Positions 4,564 through 59,926 of a stretch of DNA of 64,000 nt are shown piece by piece (positions within the stretch are counted from its first letter, which is position 1; each line of letters starts with the position of its first letter). Made by a program: the position numbers and the translations under genes. This DNA is from a virus (Duplodnaviria; Caudoviricetes): IMG/VR virus record IMGVR_UViG_3300031993_006627, positions 32,001 to 96,000 of that record; one strand, written 5' to 3'. The notes under the pieces were generated by a model that saw nothing but the letters and a program-made list of their open reading frames with translations, ran no database searches and was not told the origin of the DNA.

Positions 4564-5158
4564 AGCTACTTGGGACTGGGGCTTTGAGTATCGTGGCGGA
4601 ACGGAGGCATCTGGTGAGCCTGGTCATTGGACAGTATGCCGTGACAGGTTCCAGGATAACTCTTTCCCATTCGCAAAGCGAAATGCCAAGAGTTGCAACC
4701 TCCATGAGGACAAAGAGCGGTGGAAAAAGCTGCATGGATTCAGGAAGGTCTTCGATGAGAAGGCCCTGAAGGAATTCAGGCGCCCGGAAGGTATGACAAC
4801 ACCGAAGTTTGTCCCAGGTGAGAAAGTCTGGGCGGTGTGCCCGGATGTTTGGAGTCCCTTCGCGGCCAAAGGTGTTGTATGTTCCATAGACTGGAGTTTC
4901 TCCACGCAGAAATGGATATATGGCATTGCCTGGTACGAGCGTGTCAAGAATACACCGGAAGGTTGCCCGAAGAACCAATACCGCATCGCAGTCAGACATG
5001 TTCTGGAAGAATATCTCTACAAGTTCGAGGATAAGGCGAAAGCAAGAGAACTTATGATCGGCACCATTGCCAAGATCTTGAAATGGGTTGCCGATTTTGA
5101 GGACCGCTTGCATAATCTGAAACCCAAAGACTTGAAAGAGGGTGACTGGCTGAAATGA
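4547..5158 (+). CDS. hypothetical protein (KOW/SH3-like 'F.PGEKVW' domain)
   Basis: GAGGA RBS before ATG 4547; 'KFVPGEKVWAV'. Confidence 0.6.
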   Translation: MPKLIRATWDWGFEYRGGTEASGEPGHWTVCRDRFQDNSFPFAKRNAKSCNLHEDKERWKKLHGFRKVFDEKALKEFRRPEGMTTPKFVPGEKVWAVCPDVWSPFAAKGVVCSIDWSFSTQKWIYGIAWYERVKNTPEGCPKNQYRIAVRHVLEEYLYKFEDKAKARELMIGTIAKILKWVADFEDRLHNLKPKDLKEGDWLK

Positions 5159-31758: not shown

Positions 31759-32118
31759 ATGAAAAAGAGCTTTCGAGACAAAGTCCGTGATGCGCTGGCG
31801 CTGCGGCACATCAAGAGCCTGACCCCTGGCGGCAAACCGGTTCGTTCTGCCGAGGTCAACATCGTCACTGCCCAGGTGGCGTTCAAGCATTTCTGGAAGA
31901 AGGACTTCGACAAGTCCATCATCTGGACTACCGTATGGGAAAGCGGACTGAAGAATCACTATTCCAGCGGGGTCATCTACATTGGCGATTACAAGCTGAC
32001 TGCCGACGGTAAGGACCGCAAAGAAGCGACTGCGAAACTCGCCCGCAAGTTCTGCAACACTGTCCCGCTGTTCACTGCCAACGGGAAGGAGATCGAAAGG
32101 GTCATTGGCAATGGCTAA
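31759..32118 (+). CDS. hypothetical protein
   Basis: AAAGGAG RBS. Confidence 0.7.
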   Translation: MKKSFRDKVRDALALRHIKSLTPGGKPVRSAEVNIVTAQVAFKHFWKKDFDKSIIWTTVWESGLKNHYSSGVIYIGDYKLTADGKDRKEATAKLARKFCNTVPLFTANGKEIERVIGNG

Positions 32119-52685: not shown

Positions 52686-55600
52686 ATGCCAGAAGAACCT
52701 GTTACACCGATACAAGCAGCGAAAACCACGATGTCCACGATCCGGCTGGTGCCGGACAAGCCGAAAAAGACTGCTGCAGATTGGGTAAGGGATATGCGCA
52801 TGTCTCCTGAGGTCAATAAAACGACCGTAGGAGTCGATACAGCGTCTGTTACCGGTGATCTCCTCCTGGCGACTTCCAATAAGCTCCTCGGTATTTCCCG
52901 GCGCAAACTGGAGCCGGATCCGAAGGATTCCCTGGAGTTCCAGCGTTTTTATGGGCCAGCGGAGTACTTCGCAGAACACGTCATGCGCGACGGTAATAAG
53001 CTCGGCCGCAATATCCTTTGGAAAGCAACGAACCAGGGCAATCTGGATTTTATGCCGGTTGCCGCGCTGGACAAGCATATTTCCGATGTCTACTACGACA
53101 GCAAGCTCGCCCAGATGATCGACGGTTCCTCTCCGCTGGAAACAGTGGATGCTTCCTATAAGACCACCCGCATCGGTGAAGGCGGTGTCGGCGACCTGGA
53201 TTCTGCACCGGAAGAGATGCGCACGGTGCAGCCGTCGTTCCTCGGTTTTATAGATTCAATAAGGTCGCCTGAGAGTTTCCGAGTCGGCCTTGATGTCTAT
53301 ATGACTAAGAATGTTATGAAGGGTTCCGACGGAAAGCTCTACCAGAAGTTCATCAATGCTCACACTGGCAAGGAAGAACTGGTGGATTCCGAGACTATTG
53401 CGAAATCCATAGTAACAACGCCGGAAATCATGAAGACAAAGACTAAATCAGTCTTTGCGGTTGGCGGCCCGACTGGTGTTCGCATCGTTCCGCGCAAGGA
53501 TGTGGATTACTATCTACCCAGAGCGGATGAGGCCTATAGCCTTTCCTCGAATATGGTCACGATGCCATCGGCTGTCATTGGCATGCGTCTGCTGATGGGC
53601 TGCCTGCACCCGGAGACCAATGTGTTTGTGGCCAATGAGCGCAACATGGTGTCTATGGTGAAAGCCAGATACCTGACCGGGAAAGATCAGCGGATACCCG
53701 GTATGAACAAGGAGTACAATTCCCTCTGCTACGGCCTGCGGAATACGATCACCAAGTGCGTTCCCCAGGCAAAGTGGTTCAAAAAGATCGTCTTGCGCTC
53801 CGGTCGCGTGATTATCACCAGTTATGACCATAAATGGCCGGTGCTGGTTAAGGATGAGATGACTCTGGTCCAGGCAAGAGATCTTCGGGCCGGCGACACG
53901 GTGTTCCGTACCACTTTCAAAGACGTGCCGAATCGCCGGACGTTCCTGAACAAACACATCATCACCAGGGACGTTGCGTTTGTCCTCGGTCTGATCTGCC
54001 GGTCGGTCTATACGAATCATCCGGGATCCGTGGGCTTTTGCTACCCGATTGCAACTGATTTGCGTGTAAAAGAGGCAATTCAATACGTCTATAGAGATCT
54101 CACTCCCAAGCAGTTCCATATCACGAAGAAAGACGGTTTCCGGTACATGACAATCAAATGCCAGGGGCTTTATGATTTCGTGAAGCAAAACATTGGTTTC
54201 AAACCAGAGGAACGCCGGATCCCGTCCGAAATCCTCAGCGGCTACGCAGATGTCGCTGCAGAGTTCATCAACGGTTATACCTCGGATGAGACGAAGGTCG
54301 GCATCGACTGCAACGAGGATATCTGGGTGCTGTTTATCCCGAATATGGATTTCCGGGATCAGCTGGCGTTCCTGTTTGCCCGTATGGGTACTGATACGCT
54401 GTACCGGGATGCCTCCCAGAATGGTGAACTGCAGATCGCTCTCAAGATCAATGACCAACCCAGAGTTTTCCATGATATGTACCAAGACACTGTGAAATAT
54501 GTCTGGGAAGGCCCGAAGTGTCCGATCATGGTGGACATCGACATCAATGACAACATGTATGCAGTTGCCAATGGCATCGTGACGCACAACTCGAAGTATC
54601 CTCTGCAGGCTGTCTCTCTGGAGCAACGCGAAGCTCCTCTGGTCCGTACACTGGACGAAGCCTCCGGAAAAGATATGGCGCAGATCGCCGGTAAGTTCCT
54701 CGGTGCCAGGTTTGCCCCGAAGGGTGGTATCGTCAGTGCAGTCCGCAAGGATAGAATCGATGTCATCTGGGATGATGGTTCGAAGGGTGCAGTTCCCCTC
54801 TATGTAAACTTCCCGATGAATGCCAAGGGCTACATCAATAATACGCCGGTGGTGAAGGCCGGCCAGTCGTTCAGTAAGGGTGACTGTCTCGCGGCCTCCA
54901 ATTACACAGACAAGACAGGCACTGCAGCACTCGGCATCAATCTCCGCACCGGTTGGATTTCCTGGAAGGGCGGTACCTACGAGGATGCCGTTGTGATCTC
55001 GGAAGAAGCGGCCAAGAAGCTCACCAGCACGACGATGTACAACACATCAGTTGATCTGGATAAGACTGTTTCCCTGGGCAAGCACAATTACATCACCTGG
55101 AAGCCGGCGGAGTACACCAAAGAACAGATGCAGCAGCTGGACGACAACGGAATTGTCAAGCCAGGCACGGTACTTCACAAGGGCGACCCGATGATCCTCG
55201 CCATCCGTACTAGCGAACCTTCACCTGGTACGATGGGAAAGCGTATCTTGACCGATCTTTCGGAGACCTGGGACCACGATCATGCTGGTGTTGTGACTGA
55301 TGTGGTCAAGACCCGCAAGGGTGTCAAGGTTTATACCACCGTGACTGCGCCGGCGGAAGTCGGGGACAAGATCGCCGGCCTGCATGGCAACAAGGGCACG
55401 ATTGCCCAGATCCTGCCGGCCGACCAGATGCCACAGACACAGAACGGTACACCGCTGGATATTTGCTTCAGCCCGCTGGGTATCACCAGCCGTAACAATA
55501 CGGCGCAGCTCTATGAAGCACTGCTGGCAAAGGTTGCCAAGAAGACCGGCAAGACACAGGTTGTCCCGGCGTTCTACGACGGGGATCTCTACGAGTACGT

Positions 55601-58600
55601 CCAGAGCAAGCTGAAAGAAGCTCGTGTACACGCAGATGAAGACTTGGTGGATCCGGAGACAGGCCGCACGATTCCGAATATCCTGACCGGCTACATCTAT
55701 ACACACAAGCTGAAACATCTGGCTGAATCCAAGATGTCGGCCCGTGGCACCGGCGAATACGCTGCGGATGAGACACCGGCTGGTTCTGGCGAGACAAAGG
55801 CGAAGCGTTTTGGGTCGCTCGAAATTGGCGCGATGGTGGGCCATTCTGCTTTCGAGAACCTGCGCGATGCAAAGCTGCTCAGGGGACAGTCAAATGCCGA
55901 CTTCTGGCGGTCTATCAGAACCGGCAACATCCCGACGATGCCGGGCGAGCCTCTCGTCCACAAGAAGTTTTTCGCCCATCTGATTGGCTCAGGCGTGAAT
56001 GTCCGGAAGAGTCAGCAAGGCGTGAGCGCGTTTGCTCTCTCCAGTGACGATGTGGAAGAACTTACCGGCCCCCGCGAGTTGAAGACCCGTGATACCTACG
56101 AAACACGTAATTTTCGACCCATCGACGGCGGTCTGTTCGGCCAGGACATCTTCGGCATCAATGGAGACAAGTGGGCATATATCAAACTCGACGAACCGGT
56201 TCCGAATCCTGTAATGGAAGAGCCTCTCGCCCGTTTGCTCCGAATGCCGGACAAGACATTCATTGGTGTTGCGACAGGCAAGACGGAGTACAACGGAATC
56301 CGTGGACCGCTGCAGCTGAAGGATGCGTTGGCAAACATCAATCTGGAAACCGAAGCCAAGAATGCTCTCCAGGAACTCAAGAATGCTCCAGTGTCCAAGA
56401 AGGATGCCGCGCTGAAGCGCTATGTCGCCATCGAACGCATGCGCCGGCTCGGTGTCAGCCCGGATAAGTATATGCTGGACAAGATCCCGGTACTGCCTCC
56501 GCAATATCGTCCGATCAGCACGCACAACGGTCTCACGATGGTTGCTGACAGCAATTATCTGTATGCCCAGCTGCTGGATGCAAGGGATGATGTCCGGGAA
56601 GCACGGGATCTACCAGAAGAATATCAGCAGCAGGCACGCGAGACGCTGTACAAAAACTGGAAAGAGCTGACCGGTCTGTACGAACCGGAGAACAAGGCGT
56701 TCAAAGCAAAACATATCCAGGGACTTCTGAAGTGGGCATTGGGTGACAGCCCGAAGTTCTCGGCCGCGCAGCGGAAGATCATCGGTATCGGTGTCGATAC
56801 TGTGGGCCGTGGTGTCATTACCCCGAACCCACGTATCAAGCTGAACCAGGTTGGTCTTCCGGAAGATATGGCGTTCGGTATCTTCTCACCACTGGTGGAA
56901 CGTGCTCTTGTGCAGCGCGGCTACACCCCGGTGGACGCCATCAAGCAGGTGCACGATAAAACGAACCAGGCTCGTGAGATTCTACTGAAGGTCATGGAAA
57001 CACACCCCGTGCTTATGAACCGTGCACCTACGCTGCACAAGCTGTCGATCATGGCGTTTAATCCGGTACTTGTCAGCGGTCATGCTCTGCAGATCAATCC
57101 GAGTATCGTTGTTCCATTCGGTGCTGACTTCGACGGCAACTGTGTTGATTACGACAGCGAGATTTTCTTGAAAATATCAAAGTCTCAACACAATATTTCC
57201 ACTGCTGATTTCGTTAATTGTGTATCAAACCACAAAAATAGAAAGGATACACAAGACATGAAAACAACAGCTGAATCCCTCGTAACCTACTGGAGCGACG
57301 CAGAGAATGACTATCTGGTGATGAAGATCGGGGATCTTCCCCGTCTCGGAAACCCCATGAAGGACAAGAACGGCGCCGATTGCTATCAGGTTCCTGAAGG
57401 TCTCGAAGTCCTTACATGCAATCCGTCTACTGGAACGGCTGAATGGCAGGCAATCAATATGCTGACAGTGGAAGAAGACTGTGATACTGTCAAGATGAAA
57501 TTGGGCGCGAGGGATGTGATTCTGTCTACAAACGAGTCCGTTGCCGTCTTCGACCATGGGACCGGGTTGCTGACTAAAGTTACCCCAGAGACCGCGTATG
57601 CCGAGAAAGCAATGATTCCTGTGTTCAAGCAGAATCCTCTTCCATTCGGGACATATGCAGAACGGGATCTTGGCTGGCTTTTCGGTGCTTTTATCTCGGA
57701 CGGCTGGATGACTGATCGTACTATTGGTTATTGCAAGCTGGAGAAGGCGAAGAGGGATGAGTTCGTATCTATCCTGCGCCGCTACCACGATAACTTCACG
57801 GTGTACCAATACGATGAGGATGGCAAAGCAAACAAGTGCAAACTCGGAAAGTCGGCTAAGATTCACATAAACAGTAAAACAGCTGTTGATTGGCTCAGCC
57901 AGTGGAAGTTTGTGGACGAGGAAGCCAAAGCAAAGAACCCAGATAAACGTACTGCGTTGTTCAAGCACGTTCCGGAACATTTGATTACTTATGGCAGTGA
58001 AGAGTTCCTTTGGGGGCTGTTCTGCGGTCTGATCGACGGGGATGGTAGTCTGGTTAAGAATATGTCCACGGGCAAACCTCGTTTTACCTGCAGATTTTCT
58101 ACCTCAAGTGTAAAATTGAAAGATGACATCTGTCAGCTCTGTTACAGGCTCGGTCTGCGCTACTCTGTGACCGAGATTCCTCCGCGCAACTTCTCGAATA
58201 CAGCGTATGTTGTATTTCCTTCTACGACAGATCTTTTCAGCAAGTTGGACAAGATTCAGCTGATTGGGGAAAGAGAAAAAGCCGTTTTGGAAGAGTGGAG
58301 ACAAAGTGAACCAAGTTTGGACAGGAACGACATTGTTCCTATAACAGAGTTCGAATGGGATTGCATAAAGTCCTATCCGGAAATCATGTCCGACAAAGGT
58401 TTGTACAGCGCAGCCAGTAAGTCCAGAAAGATAGGAAGACGTGCTTGTCGCGAAGTCCTGTATCGTCATCTGGATATATTGAAATGCGCTGCACCATCGT
58501 TACTGCGCAGAGTTCTTAATACAGACACAATATGGATGACCATCGACAGCTTGGATCCGACCGGTAAGCGTCAGGTGTTTGATCTTGAGGTACAGGACAC

Positions 58601-58910
58601 GAAGGTGTTCGCTGTTAACAACGGCATCATCATCTGGGACACGGTCAATATCCATGCTCCAGTCAGTGACAACGCTCGCGAGGAAGCCCGTCGTCGCATG
58701 TTCCCGGAGCGCAACCTGATAGCCATGAAGAATCGGCAGATCGCTTATAAGCCGGAAAAGGAATACACGCAAGGGCTTTATACCGCGAGTCGCATTAACG
58801 ACAAGTCCACAGTACGCCCCATCTTATTTAAGGATCTGGCTGAAGCTCGTGCGGCCTATCGTCAAGGTCTTATCAACATTGACGACCCCATTGACATCCA
58901 GACAATATAA
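52686..58910 (+). CDS. RNA polymerase beta(C-part)-beta'(N-part) fusion with two inteins
   Basis: beta: SPES..VGL, RLLMG, YEDAVVISE, GDKIAGLHGNKG, KLKH...K.SARG, RFG..E. beta': GLF...IFG, IPVLPP.YRP, GRGVI, NRAPTLH, ADFDG. Confidence 0.92.
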   Translation: MPEEPVTPIQAAKTTMSTIRLVPDKPKKTAADWVRDMRMSPEVNKTTVGVDTASVTGDLLLATSNKLLGISRRKLEPDPKDSLEFQRFYGPAEYFAEHVMRDGNKLGRNILWKATNQGNLDFMPVAALDKHISDVYYDSKLAQMIDGSSPLETVDASYKTTRIGEGGVGDLDSAPEEMRTVQPSFLGFIDSIRSPESFRVGLDVYMTKNVMKGSDGKLYQKFINAHTGKEELVDSETIAKSIVTTPEIMKTKTKSVFAVGGPTGVRIVPRKDVDYYLPRADEAYSLSSNMVTMPSAVIGMRLLMGCLHPETNVFVANERNMVSMVKARYLTGKDQRIPGMNKEYNSLCYGLRNTITKCVPQAKWFKKIVLRSGRVIITSYDHKWPVLVKDEMTLVQARDLRAGDTVFRTTFKDVPNRRTFLNKHIITRDVAFVLGLICRSVYTNHPGSVGFCYPIATDLRVKEAIQYVYRDLTPKQFHITKKDGFRYMTIKCQGLYDFVKQNIGFKPEERRIPSEILSGYADVAAEFINGYTSDETKVGIDCNEDIWVLFIPNMDFRDQLAFLFARMGTDTLYRDASQNGELQIALKINDQPRVFHDMYQDTVKYVWEGPKCPIMVDIDINDNMYAVANGIVTHNSKYPLQAVSLEQREAPLVRTLDEASGKDMAQIAGKFLGARFAPKGGIVSAVRKDRIDVIWDDGSKGAVPLYVNFPMNAKGYINNTPVVKAGQSFSKGDCLAASNYTDKTGTAALGINLRTGWISWKGGTYEDAVVISEEAAKKLTSTTMYNTSVDLDKTVSLGKHNYITWKPAEYTKEQMQQLDDNGIVKPGTVLHKGDPMILAIRTSEPSPGTMGKRILTDLSETWDHDHAGVVTDVVKTRKGVKVYTTVTAPAEVGDKIAGLHGNKGTIAQILPADQMPQTQNGTPLDICFSPLGITSRNNTAQLYEALLAKVAKKTGKTQVVPAFYDGDLYEYVQSKLKEARVHADEDLVDPETGRTIPNILTGYIYTHKLKHLAESKMSARGTGEYAADETPAGSGETKAKRFGSLEIGAMVGHSAFENLRDAKLLRGQSNADFWRSIRTGNIPTMPGEPLVHKKFFAHLIGSGVNVRKSQQGVSAFALSSDDVEELTGPRELKTRDTYETRNFRPIDGGLFGQDIFGINGDKWAYIKLDEPVPNPVMEEPLARLLRMPDKTFIGVATGKTEYNGIRGPLQLKDALANINLETEAKNALQELKNAPVSKKDAALKRYVAIERMRRLGVSPDKYMLDKIPVLPPQYRPISTHNGLTMVADSNYLYAQLLDARDDVREARDLPEEYQQQARETLYKNWKELTGLYEPENKAFKAKHIQGLLKWALGDSPKFSAAQRKIIGIGVDTVGRGVITPNPRIKLNQVGLPEDMAFGIFSPLVERALVQRGYTPVDAIKQVHDKTNQAREILLKVMETHPVLMNRAPTLHKLSIMAFNPVLVSGHALQINPSIVVPFGADFDGNCVDYDSEIFLKISKSQHNISTADFVNCVSNHKNRKDTQDMKTTAESLVTYWSDAENDYLVMKIGDLPRLGNPMKDKNGADCYQVPEGLEVLTCNPSTGTAEWQAINMLTVEEDCDTVKMKLGARDVILSTNESVAVFDHGTGLLTKVTPETAYAEKAMIPVFKQNPLPFGTYAERDLGWLFGAFISDGWMTDRTIGYCKLEKAKRDEFVSILRRYHDNFTVYQYDEDGKANKCKLGKSAKIHINSKTAVDWLSQWKFVDEEAKAKNPDKRTALFKHVPEHLITYGSEEFLWGLFCGLIDGDGSLVKNMSTGKPRFTCRFSTSSVKLKDDICQLCYRLGLRYSVTEIPPRNFSNTAYVVFPSTTDLFSKLDKIQLIGEREKAVLEEWRQSEPSLDRNDIVPITEFEWDCIKSYPEIMSDKGLYSAASKSRKIGRRACREVLYRHLDILKCAAPSLLRRVLNTDTIWMTIDSLDPTGKRQVFDLEVQDTKVFAVNNGIIIWDTVNIHAPVSDNAREEARRRMFPERNLIAMKNRQIAYKPEKEYTQGLYTASRINDKSTVRPILFKDLAEARAAYRQGLINIDDPIDIQTI
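53601..54590 (+). mobile_element. intein 1 (330 aa) in RNAP beta, degenerate LAGLIDADG
   Basis: RLLMG|CLHPET...TSYDHKW...YAVANGIVTHN|SKYPLQAVSL; restores an RALMG.NM..QAVPL-like motif. Confidence 0.88.
57141..58640 (+). mobile_element. intein 2 (500 aa) with LAGLIDADG endonuclease at the RNAP catalytic loop, atypical WD C-terminus
   Basis: ADFDGN|CVDYDS...LFGAFISDG...GLIDGDG...VFDLEV....FAVNNGIIIWD|TVNIHAP. Confidence 0.8.
58093..58117. repeat. 25-bp pseudo-palindromic site, copy 7 (inside intein 2)
   Basis: GATTTTCTACC-TCA-AGTGTAAAATT; 23/25 identical to the reverse complement of copy 6. Confidence 0.7.
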
Positions 58911-58948: not shown

Positions 58949-59926
58949 ATGAACTACTATCAAAGACAGCCGATGTGGCCGCTCAATAAACGCGCAGTTG
59001 CGATCCTCACACCCGAAGCGATGCAGGCAGCTATGCAGCCGCCCCCACAGGACCCCTCGATGATGGGTGGTGCTCCTATGGATCCTTCCATGACCGGCGG
59101 TCAACCTCCGATGGACCCCGCGATGGCCGGTGGCGCTCCAATGCCTCCTCCGCAGGGTGCTCCGATGGATCCCTCTATGATGGGCGGTCAGCCCCCGATG
59201 CCTCCGCAAGGTGCGCCGGCCGGTGGTCTTCCTCCTGAAGCATTGCAGGACCAGATGTTCCTGCAGTTCCTTGCCGAGGCTTTCGGCATCATGCTTGATC
59301 CTCGTTCCGGCCAGTTCTTCGATCAGAACGGTCAGCCGGTTCCTCCCGAACTTCTGGCTCAGGCTTTCCAAGCCTATATGCAGGCGATGCAGCAACTTCA
59401 GATGCAGGGAGGCGGTGCCCCGATGCCTCCGCAGGGTGCTCCGATGGATCCGGCCGCCATGGGTGGTGCGCCGATGCCGCCTCCTGGCGAGATGCCTCCG
59501 ATGGATCCCGGCATGGCCGGTGGTCAGCCCCCGATGGATCCTGCAATGGCCGGCGGCGATCCTGGTATGATGGCTCCTCCGCCGGAAGGTGGCGAGCAGC
59601 CAATGGATCCCATGATGGCGGATTTCGCCAGCATGATCGTCAGCGCCATGGAAGATACCGTCGTCACTCCTCTGAAAGAAGAACTGTCGAACCTCATGAA
59701 GCAGTTCAACGATCTGAAGGAAATGATGAAGACCATGCGGGACGACATGGGCACCATCCGTACTGATGTTGATGCCCAGGAATCCAGAGCGGATGAATCT
59801 TCCATGCTTCGTTCCCAGCTTGCTGAGGAACTCGAACCGACCGTTGAACCAGAGCCGGAAGCTCCGCAGGAAAAACAGGCAGCTCTCCGTCCACTGAACA
59901 TTCTTGACATTCTTGGGAGCAAGTAA
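58949..59926 (+). CDS. Pro/Met/Gly-rich repeat protein with coiled coil (K-x-A at both ends)
   Basis: Repeated PMDPxMxGG(A/Q)P units; NKRAV and EKQAA. Confidence 0.75.
   Translation: MNYYQRQPMWPLNKRAVAILTPEAMQAAMQPPPQDPSMMGGAPMDPSMTGGQPPMDPAMAGGAPMPPPQGAPMDPSMMGGQPPMPPQGAPAGGLPPEALQDQMFLQFLAEAFGIMLDPRSGQFFDQNGQPVPPELLAQAFQAYMQAMQQLQMQGGGAPMPPQGAPMDPAAMGGAPMPPPGEMPPMDPGMAGGQPPMDPAMAGGDPGMMAPPPEGGEQPMDPMMADFASMIVSAMEDTVVTPLKEELSNLMKQFNDLKEMMKTMRDDMGTIRTDVDAQESRADESSMLRSQLAEELEPTVEPEPEAPQEKQAALRPLNILDILGSK

Follow-up and report, generated by a model that had tools for sequence, protein, structure and literature searches.

An intein without the usual catalytic histidines at the metal-binding motif of a phage RNA polymerase, where asparagine is encoded in place of the third aspartate

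The polymerase gene and its second intein

The window analysed here is a stretch of 64,000 nucleotides (positions 32,001 to 96,000 of IMG/VR record IMGVR_UViG_3300031993_006627); its source record is one metagenome-assembled virus, classed as a provirus. All features described below lie on the plus strand. A 2074-aa reading frame with two inteins (52686-58910) encodes a fusion of the C-terminal part of the RNA polymerase beta subunit with the N-terminal part of beta', and matches the Pfam families RNA_pol_Rpb2_6 (2.7e-57) and RNA_pol_Rpb1_2 (6.3e-20). There is no Rpb1_2 match elsewhere in the 164-kb genome: this gene is the single one, and it provides the sole RNA polymerase of this rumen phage.

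The catalytic motif reads GADFDG-N (57120-57140). The first two metal-binding Asp of the (N)ADFDGD consensus are present, and the codon of the third is AAC (57138-57140), giving Asn; this Asn is at the same time the -1 residue of intein 2. To our knowledge, the third Asp is universal among multisubunit RNA polymerases, and Sosunov et al. are said to have found in 2005 that substituting any of the three in E. coli strongly lowers all activities.

Intein 2 (57141-58640, 500 aa) follows directly. It ends with TGG GAC, encoding Trp-Asp, and the C-extein (58641-58910) begins with Thr(+1) of TVNIHAP (58641-58661), so that the junctions read GADFDG-N/C...W-D/TVNIHAP, as the first-pass annotation had it. 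The AF2 model of intein 2 (pLDDT 85.4) adopts a HINT fold with an inserted LAGLIDADG endonuclease domain, its best Foldseek matches being the TliVMA intein (7qss, 3.5e-19), PI-PfuI (1dq3, 1.6e-18) and PI-SceI. The GC content of the intein is 0.44-0.50 versus 0.55 in the flanks.

The N-terminal nucleophile Cys1 (TGT, 57141-57143) is found in all 117 family members extracted. A block N2-like segment, T109-V-E111, lies at 57465-57473. In block B (57525-57539), S-T-N-E-S stands where T-x-x-H would be expected: N131 does not vary (117/117) and Glu132, present in 108/117, occupies the position of the canonical His. The two LAGLIDADG motifs are GWLFGAFISDGW (57672-57707), with conserved G178, W179, D187 and G188, and LWGLFCGLIDGDGSL (58008-58052; Pfam LAGLIDADG_3, 2e-4), with conserved D299 and D301. 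Blocks F and G, VFDLEVQDTKVFAVNNGIIIWD (58575-58640), give a sub-threshold match to Pfam Intein_splicing (6.2e-5, model positions 114-152) and retain D481 (F:4); K488 replaces His there, and Trp499-Asp500 replaces the terminal His-Asn. The last two residues are Trp, Tyr or Phe followed by Asp family-wide, and D500 stands directly ahead of Thr, as a C-terminal Asp does ahead of Ser, Thr or Cys. At every position at least 80% conserved, intein 2 carries the family consensus residue.

Within the intein, an SD-like AAAGGA precedes the ATG of codon 40 (57242-57260), a probable internal start, and a promoter-like site lies at 57168-57197. Residue 40 is Met in 102 of 117 members and mostly Leu or Val in the others; the SD-like motif and ATG recur at 9 of the 11 loci with DNA. 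Initiation there would yield a product devoid of the first 39 intein residues. Some contigs start just ahead of codon 40, but we rejected a split intein on this ground because the upstream frame stays open.

Family-wide junctions and intein-free alleles

Asn at -1, Cys at position 1, an aromatic residue plus Asp at the end and Thr or Ser at +1 are common to all of about 120 homologous inteins, which represent diverged clusters from many samples and are 27-60% identical. Among those extracted, N/C and D/[TS] junctions occur in 117/117, and the +1 residue is Thr in 113 and Ser in four; such uniformity of the unusual junctions noticed at first reading goes far beyond chance. Its hallmarks are S-x-N-E in block B, Glu at 111, Lys in block F and the aromatic-Asp C-terminus. 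Intein 2 belongs to a large lineage from which the terminal Asn and the histidines normally used in catalysis have been lost.

On the host side, the third Asp position is Asn in 61/61 hosts of the N/C intein type and Asp in 96/96 other alleles sampled; intein-free homologues read DFDGD and not DFDGN. The same 61 hosts show no variation in the Gly of the motif or in its first two Asp, and the polymerase remains under selection. Two proteins without the N/C intein type, P0154 and P0155, are 93% identical to the intein host over the whole protein and read DFDGD then T; between residues 1425 and 1517 their sole difference from the intein host is N1485D. Two intein-free alleles (L005 and L006, 88% identical) join exactly as DFDGD/TVNIHAP, a joint also present in metagenome run X6, and intein-plus and intein-minus alleles occur together in metagenomes at comparable depth. 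Intein 2 is therefore inserted in frame at a host site that is conserved, in the catalytic loop, as had been proposed. It is an intact, mobile and bifunctional element (HINT plus LAGLIDADG endonuclease) at the D/T site of the beta' DFDGD motif. Within 70 residues on either side of the motif, only position -1 associates perfectly with intein type (the next column reaches 0.49), and there appears to be no compensating change nearby.

An intein-free DFDGN-T allele was found 0 times in IMG/VR, against 18 for a DFDGD-T control; in metagenome contigs there were 4 matches, all by chance in non-coding frames. Likewise, 16 of 27 ADFDGNC matches in IMG/VR, among them the ones interrupted by early stops, arose by chance and do not represent split genes. 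Cultured phages (50,697 records) yielded no match, whether the region was searched by megablast or the intein by tblastn; scanning IMG/VR for close relatives of the intein was equally negative, and a PDB sequence search returned nothing significant. In the literature, we found no paper describing such a histidine-less Asn(-1) intein in RNA polymerase.

The Asn codon is a single A/G transition away from Asp, and the record is one metagenome-assembled, provirus-classed virus; it could thus be imagined that 57138 was wrongly sequenced or assembled, or that the intein is dead and its host gene decaying. However, an independent assembly of the probable source run is identical over 56900-58900, and Asn(-1) is invariant across the ~120 diverged clusters. 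Intein-bearing contigs that are ~95% identical come from two further studies (goat gut, 2022; gut, 2024), with no change at 57138-57140 among the differences listed; a near-length protein search gave no >90% identical fragments from the other runs. Decay is contradicted by the retention of every family-conserved residue in intein 2 and by the otherwise intact host motif. We consider artefact or decay, both raised in the first-pass annotation, extremely improbable.

The -1 residue covaries with intein residue 111

The same D/T site of phage RNA polymerases harbours sister inteins (P0143, P0149, P0151, L077, L089 and the P0173 and P0231 groups), distant homologues of intein 2 along both the splicing and the endonuclease part (1e-20 to 1e-60). 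They keep Asp(-1) and His111, and, except in the P0231 group, the D-H of block B; their position 1 is Ser, Thr, Cys, Gln or Ala and their last residue mostly Asp. Their canonical splicing would yield a normal DFDGD. Junctions of the forms D/S...YD/T, D/[ST]...QD/T and D/C...WD/T all exist, the last in L077. Since Asp(-1) is kept together with a terminal Asp or with Cys1, neither of these forces Asn. The terminal Asp characterises the lineage and is not paired with Asn(-1). The suggestion that Asn and Asp have changed places reciprocally, with the active site completed by the Asp of the far junction, is not supported. Incompatibility of Asp(-1) with a Cys1 thioester was likewise rejected: L077 and L089 are both D/C.

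What does vary with the -1 residue is intein position 111: Asp(-1) comes with His111 in 15/15 cases and Asn(-1) with Glu or Asp111 in 116/117. Asn(-1) goes with the loss of two intein histidines. A FastTree phylogeny with outgroups added unites all Asp(-1) inteins that contain His in a single clade (support 99), with the N/C inteins on the other side. An apparent derivation of the D/S trio from N/C inteins was an effect of midpoint rooting; with outgroups, the trio joins the His-containing clade. P0047 is a nested, independent reversal to D/S that has regained His111 and so obeys the same rule. The only lineage to change Cys1 to Ser has also returned to Asp, which suggests that Asn carries a cost. 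Taken together, we regard the identity of the intein, its boundaries and this covariation as very well founded.

Splicing and the fate of the encoded asparagine

The splice boundaries look canonical. The family admits no exception to Cys1 or to Thr/Ser at +1, and at +1 this holds only in the presence of the intein (117/117 alleles with the intein have Thr or Ser, whereas those without it have T, Q, A, M or N); canonical boundaries are therefore favoured, and the first product should be DFDGN-T, as was predicted at first reading. At the DNA level, it is true that AAC TGT...TGG fits cleanly, with no substitution, between the intein-free GGC and GAC, as if Asn-Cys...Trp were excised and the far-junction Asp left on the C-extein to give DFDG-D-T. 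But a Cys1 thioester is possible only with the residue just before Cys1, cyclisation that would cleave the C-terminal bond is not open to Trp, Tyr or Phe, and Asp is no +1 nucleophile. Such shifted boundaries would also leave the conservation of Thr/Ser(+1) only with the intein unaccounted for, and relatives with Asp at both junctions yield the correct product through canonical ones. We hold this scheme to be very unlikely.

With class-1 boundaries, the Cys1 thioester would form on the Asn carbonyl, the N-extein would then pass to Thr(+1), and the terminal Asp would cyclise and release the intein, as in other Asp-ending inteins; the terminal Asn of inteins can be replaced by Asp or Gln (review PMC4031507). 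The covariation suggests that the extein -1 residue is part of the intein active site and that residue 111 touches it: Asp(-1) and His111 might form an ion pair, Asn(-1) and Glu or Asp111 a hydrogen-bonded one. The Asn codon would travel with the homing intein, brought along because it directly adjoins the insert.

Whether the enzyme keeps this Asn is a separate matter. Encoded Asn may instead become Asp during or after splicing, giving a mature enzyme with the normal DFDGD triad. Asp is universal at this position and Asn never occurs in intein-free alleles; nearly identical intein-free backbones carry Asp, so no compensating change accounts for tolerance of Asn; the N/C lineage is old and successful although it encodes Asn; and an acidic residue is specifically paired with Asn(-1). 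Three routes are conceivable: the lineage-specific Glu111 and Glu132 could remove the side-chain amide of Asn by hydrolysis, acting on the precursor or an ester intermediate, the metal-bound polymerase active site could promote deamidation, or Asn-Thr could deamidate spontaneously via a succinimide. However, class-1 splicing chemistry has no step removing a side-chain amide, and succinimide or thioester routes return Asn or iso-linkages. Spontaneous Asn-Thr deamidation takes weeks in model peptides and gives mainly isoAsp; that route would be slow. The genome has no PCMT or Asparaginase_2 family match, hence no isoaspartyl methyltransferase or asparaginase-like gene by this search, and efficient conversion would have put little pressure on P0047 to return to encoded Asp. 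We regard conversion as plausible, if rather doubtful. It is only tentatively, and with slightly less confidence still, that we suggest protein-level editing performed or set up by this intein lineage, Asn being encoded for the histidine-less site and later made Asp; if so, the polymerase active site would be complete only after maturation.

We favour, at roughly even confidence, persistence of a functional Asn. The polymerase would be born as DFDGN-T and would function in that state, perhaps with reduced efficiency, the side-chain oxygen of Asn serving as a metal ligand; the drive that homing gives the endonuclease would make up for the cost. Against this reading stand the universality of Asp at the third position, the failure to find an intein-free DFDGN-T in IMG/VR or metagenome contigs, and the return to Asp in the one lineage whose Cys1 became Ser.

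One of two textbook rules then has to yield: either a multisubunit RNA polymerase can run with Asn in its metal triad, or splicing can be coupled to a novel side-chain change, one that we know of no intein making. The Asp(-1)/His111 relatives and the near-identical intein-free alleles are natural matched controls, which makes the question directly testable.

Comparison with known inteins

Intein 2 shares its fold and domain layout with class 1 inteins bearing a nested LAGLIDADG endonuclease (TliVMA, 7qss; PI-PfuI, 1dq3; PI-SceI, 1vde), as well as the Cys1 and Thr(+1) nucleophiles, the block F Asp, the two LAGLIDADG motifs, insertion at a catalytic site and the existence of intein-free alleles. 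Unlike them, it has Glu for the block B His, no block F or penultimate His, a terminal Asp instead of Asn, and a host catalytic Asp(-1) that is now Asn.

Asp- or Gln-ending inteins are known from Chy RIR1, CIV RIR1 and Pab PolII (Amitai et al. 2004, as cited in PMC4031507). Like these, intein 2 ends in a non-Asn residue still able to cyclise and cut the C-terminal junction. Those are isolated cases, whereas here the terminal Asp is fixed across related inteins at one site, and in the main lineage every catalytic His has also gone and an extein residue has changed.

Tko CDC21-1 is the only intein lacking the block B His that has been described as functional: it activates its N-terminal junction in the absence of His B:10, a Lys outside the motifs compensating (PMC4031507). 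Here, instead, more than 100 diverged members have Glu at B:10 and at 111, and Asn at B:9 without exception, a family in which an intein active site is built without any usual histidine.

The sister inteins at the D/T site share the insertion point but keep the Asp(-1) and His111 that intein 2 does not. What this comparison adds is that the terminal Asp is not reciprocal to Asn(-1), which covaries with residue 111; an extein residue co-evolving with a single intein residue would be useful in engineering inteins for difficult junctions.

An intein in the catalytic loop of a phage RNA polymerase

The virus record containing the window spans 164 kb, is about 93% complete and comes from a metagenome that is probably bovine gut. 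Its sole beta' catalytic-domain match is the ORF at 52686-58910 (+), an RNA polymerase gene of 2074 aa that combines Rpb2 domain 6 with Rpb1 domain 2 and is split by two in-frame inserts. Intein 1 (53601-54590, +; 330 aa), in the beta part, is canonical: it reads C...THN↓S (arrows mark junctions) and is inserted at LLMG↓SKYP. The second insert (57141-58640, +; 500 aa) runs from Cys to Trp-Asp, between the motif GADFDG-N (57120-57140, +) and TVNIHAP, and has a lower GC content than its flanks. Between the two beta' parts, ORF 58949-59926 is set in GC-rich DNA (maximum 0.65) and has no family match; at the equivalent place, the relatives L005-L007 encode a low-complexity protein rich in Pro, Gly, Met and Asp.

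The second insert is an intein, as the first-pass annotation had proposed. The top PDB matches of its AlphaFold model, built from 27 family sequences (mean pLDDT 85.4), are endonuclease-bearing inteins: TliVMA (7qss, 3.5e-19), PI-PfuI and PI-SceI. Both LAGLIDADG motifs are intact, and wherever at least 80% of the family agree, the intein has the consensus residue.

Codon 40 of the intein is an ATG (57168-57260 region) with AAAGGA and a promoter-like TTGAAA/AATATT pair upstream. Met is found there in 102 of 117 family members and Leu or Val in most others. Of the 11 loci with DNA, 9 have an SD-like motif ahead of the ATG; the residues around this position vary and are disordered in the model. 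This suggests that an N-terminally truncated endonuclease may be translated separately from codon 40.

Asparagine at -1 is fixed with the intein

Scanning all 1.84 billion representatives with HMMER returned 486 relatives of the intein; those reaching the junctions all lie within RNA polymerase-like proteins. Among the 117 family members taken from these and from a separate N-extein search, the arrangement N↓C...D↓[T/S] proved conserved: Asn(-1), Cys1 and a terminal Asp occur in 117/117, the preceding residue is aromatic but variable (Trp 56, Tyr 53, Phe 5), and +1 is Thr (113) or Ser (4).

The Asn junction is neither an error nor a relic. For the probable source run, the independent Logan assembly shows zero differences over 56900-58900, which, together with the family-wide Asn, contradicts an assembly error at this codon. 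Intein-bearing contigs about 95% identical are present in two other studies, one of which also has an intein-free allele with the joint G-D-T. Gene decay, likewise considered in the first-pass annotation, is at odds with the intact LAGLIDADG motifs, the conserved intein residues and the remaining triad residues, invariant among the compared alleles.

Nor do intein-free homologues already carry DFDGN: they read DFDGD, including L005, L006 (88% identical) and the proteins P0154 and P0155. The latter two possess intein 1, lack intein 2 and share 93% identity with the window's protein; over residues 1425-1517, N1485D is the sole difference. Comparing 61 hosts of this intein type with 52 intein-free alleles and 44 with other inserts, we found N at -1 in 61/61 hosts and D in 96/96 others. 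The next-best association with intein type among extein columns up to 70 residues away is 0.49, far below that of -1. Since only -1 follows intein type closely within this range, local compensating change is absent. We infer that the Asn codon, adjoining the insert, moves with the intein in homing.

L007 (IMG/VR 3300031998_007791), a 70%-identical relative, has DFDSD in place of DFDGD; its downstream beta' C-part gene carries a mini-intein, G↓CLAGDT...CVSN↓SKHAGG.

Asn(-1) covaries with residue 111 of the intein

Across the aligned sequences, Asn(-1) goes with histidine loss in the intein. Block B reads S-x-N-E in the Asn(-1) lineage, against S-x-D-H in the Asp(-1) relatives at the same site other than the P0231 group (T-D-D-D-P), and block F of the lineage has Lys. 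Residue 111 is Glu or Asp in 116/117 members of the lineage and His in 15/15 relatives. In a FastTree phylogeny of 135 inteins, the Asp(-1) inteins that contain His all group in one clade (support 99), opposite the N↓C inteins. Only P0047, encoded on a 262-kb phiKZ-like contig, departs from this division and is nested among N↓C inteins: its junction codons are GAC AGT (D↓S) versus AAC TGT in its neighbours, block B N-E is kept and His111 is regained. This reversal follows the same rule, so the -1/111 pairing has changed at least twice; neither one-step intermediate, N↓S or D↓C inside the Asn(-1) lineage, was seen. The -1 side chain probably touches residue 111.

L061, a 262-kb phiKZ-like contig, holds a group I intron (4607-5030; Rfam RF00028, 46.5 bits, E 1.4e-10) after the first Asp codon, GMD↓FDGD. 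A D↓S intein follows four codons further on, placing intron and intein in one catalytic motif.

Other inteins share the site

Besides N↓C inteins, the joint in DFDGD↓TVNIHAP hosts D↓[S/T]...QD↓T (P0173 group), D↓[Q/A]...SN↓T (P0231 group), D↓SC...YD↓T (P0143, P0149, P0151) and, in IMG/VR, D↓C...WD↓T (L077) and D↓C...QD↓T (L089). Each is distantly homologous to the window's intein in both splicing and endonuclease parts (1e-20 to 1e-60), and together they make up a single related set at one site. Most combine a terminal Asp with a retained Asp(-1); the terminal Asp is therefore a lineage trait and not the counterpart of Asn(-1), and the reciprocal Asn/Asp swap initially read into the junctions is not borne out. 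The idea that a thioester beside Asp forces Asn was also rejected: L077 has Cys1 and a Trp-Asp end with Asp(-1).

In P0231, P0265 and P0270 the first residue is Gln or Ala, hence no nucleophile; block B is T-D-D-D-P and the end Ser-Asn, which resembles a mechanism of class 2 or class 3. Eight IMG/VR contigs from one metagenome (L064, L069, L074, L079, L081, L082, L084, L091), in clear RNA polymerase context, read ...GLGADFDGD, then CQWGHVF..., with a stop 18-19 codons on; the D↓T site may here hold an intron or some other element.

Splicing route and fate of the asparagine

Since only intein-bearing alleles conserve Cys1 and Thr/Ser(+1), the splice boundaries are most likely canonical. Cys1 would take over the carbonyl of the directly preceding residue and no other, and the precursor should accordingly yield DFDGN-T, in line with the original prediction. 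The DNA can also be read as an element running from Asn to Trp, placed between Gly and Asp, but this reading lacks workable chemistry and is very unlikely.

We give an even chance to the DFDGN enzyme working as such: canonical chemistry predicts it, and phages with and without the intein are equally abundant in the same samples. Asn can still give an oxygen ligand to the metal. The return of P0047 to Asp suggests that Asn persists and carries a cost.

Re-creation of Asp from the encoded Asn is possible, and we entertain it tentatively. The third Asp is universal at this position, its substitutions in E. coli are reportedly severe, and the near-identical backbones of P0154 and P0155 have Asp. 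Intein-free DFDGN-T alleles numbered 0 in IMG/VR versus 18 DFDGD-T controls, and 4 matches in metagenome contigs were all by chance. As for an isoaspartyl methyltransferase or asparaginase-like gene, the genome has no PCMT or Asparaginase_2 family match.

Comparison with known inteins

Full-text literature searches found no paper that connects the RNA polymerase DFDGD motif with an intein, and none of 50,697 cultured phage records matched the window's intein. A 2014 review counts just two inteins that lack the block B His, of which one is a pseudogene, and the terminal Asp is already known as a rare variant (PMC4031507). New here are the related inteins at this site with Asp(-1) retained, the D↓C and D↓S counter-examples, the covariation of -1 with His111 together with its independent reversal, and the comparison of near-isogenic alleles.
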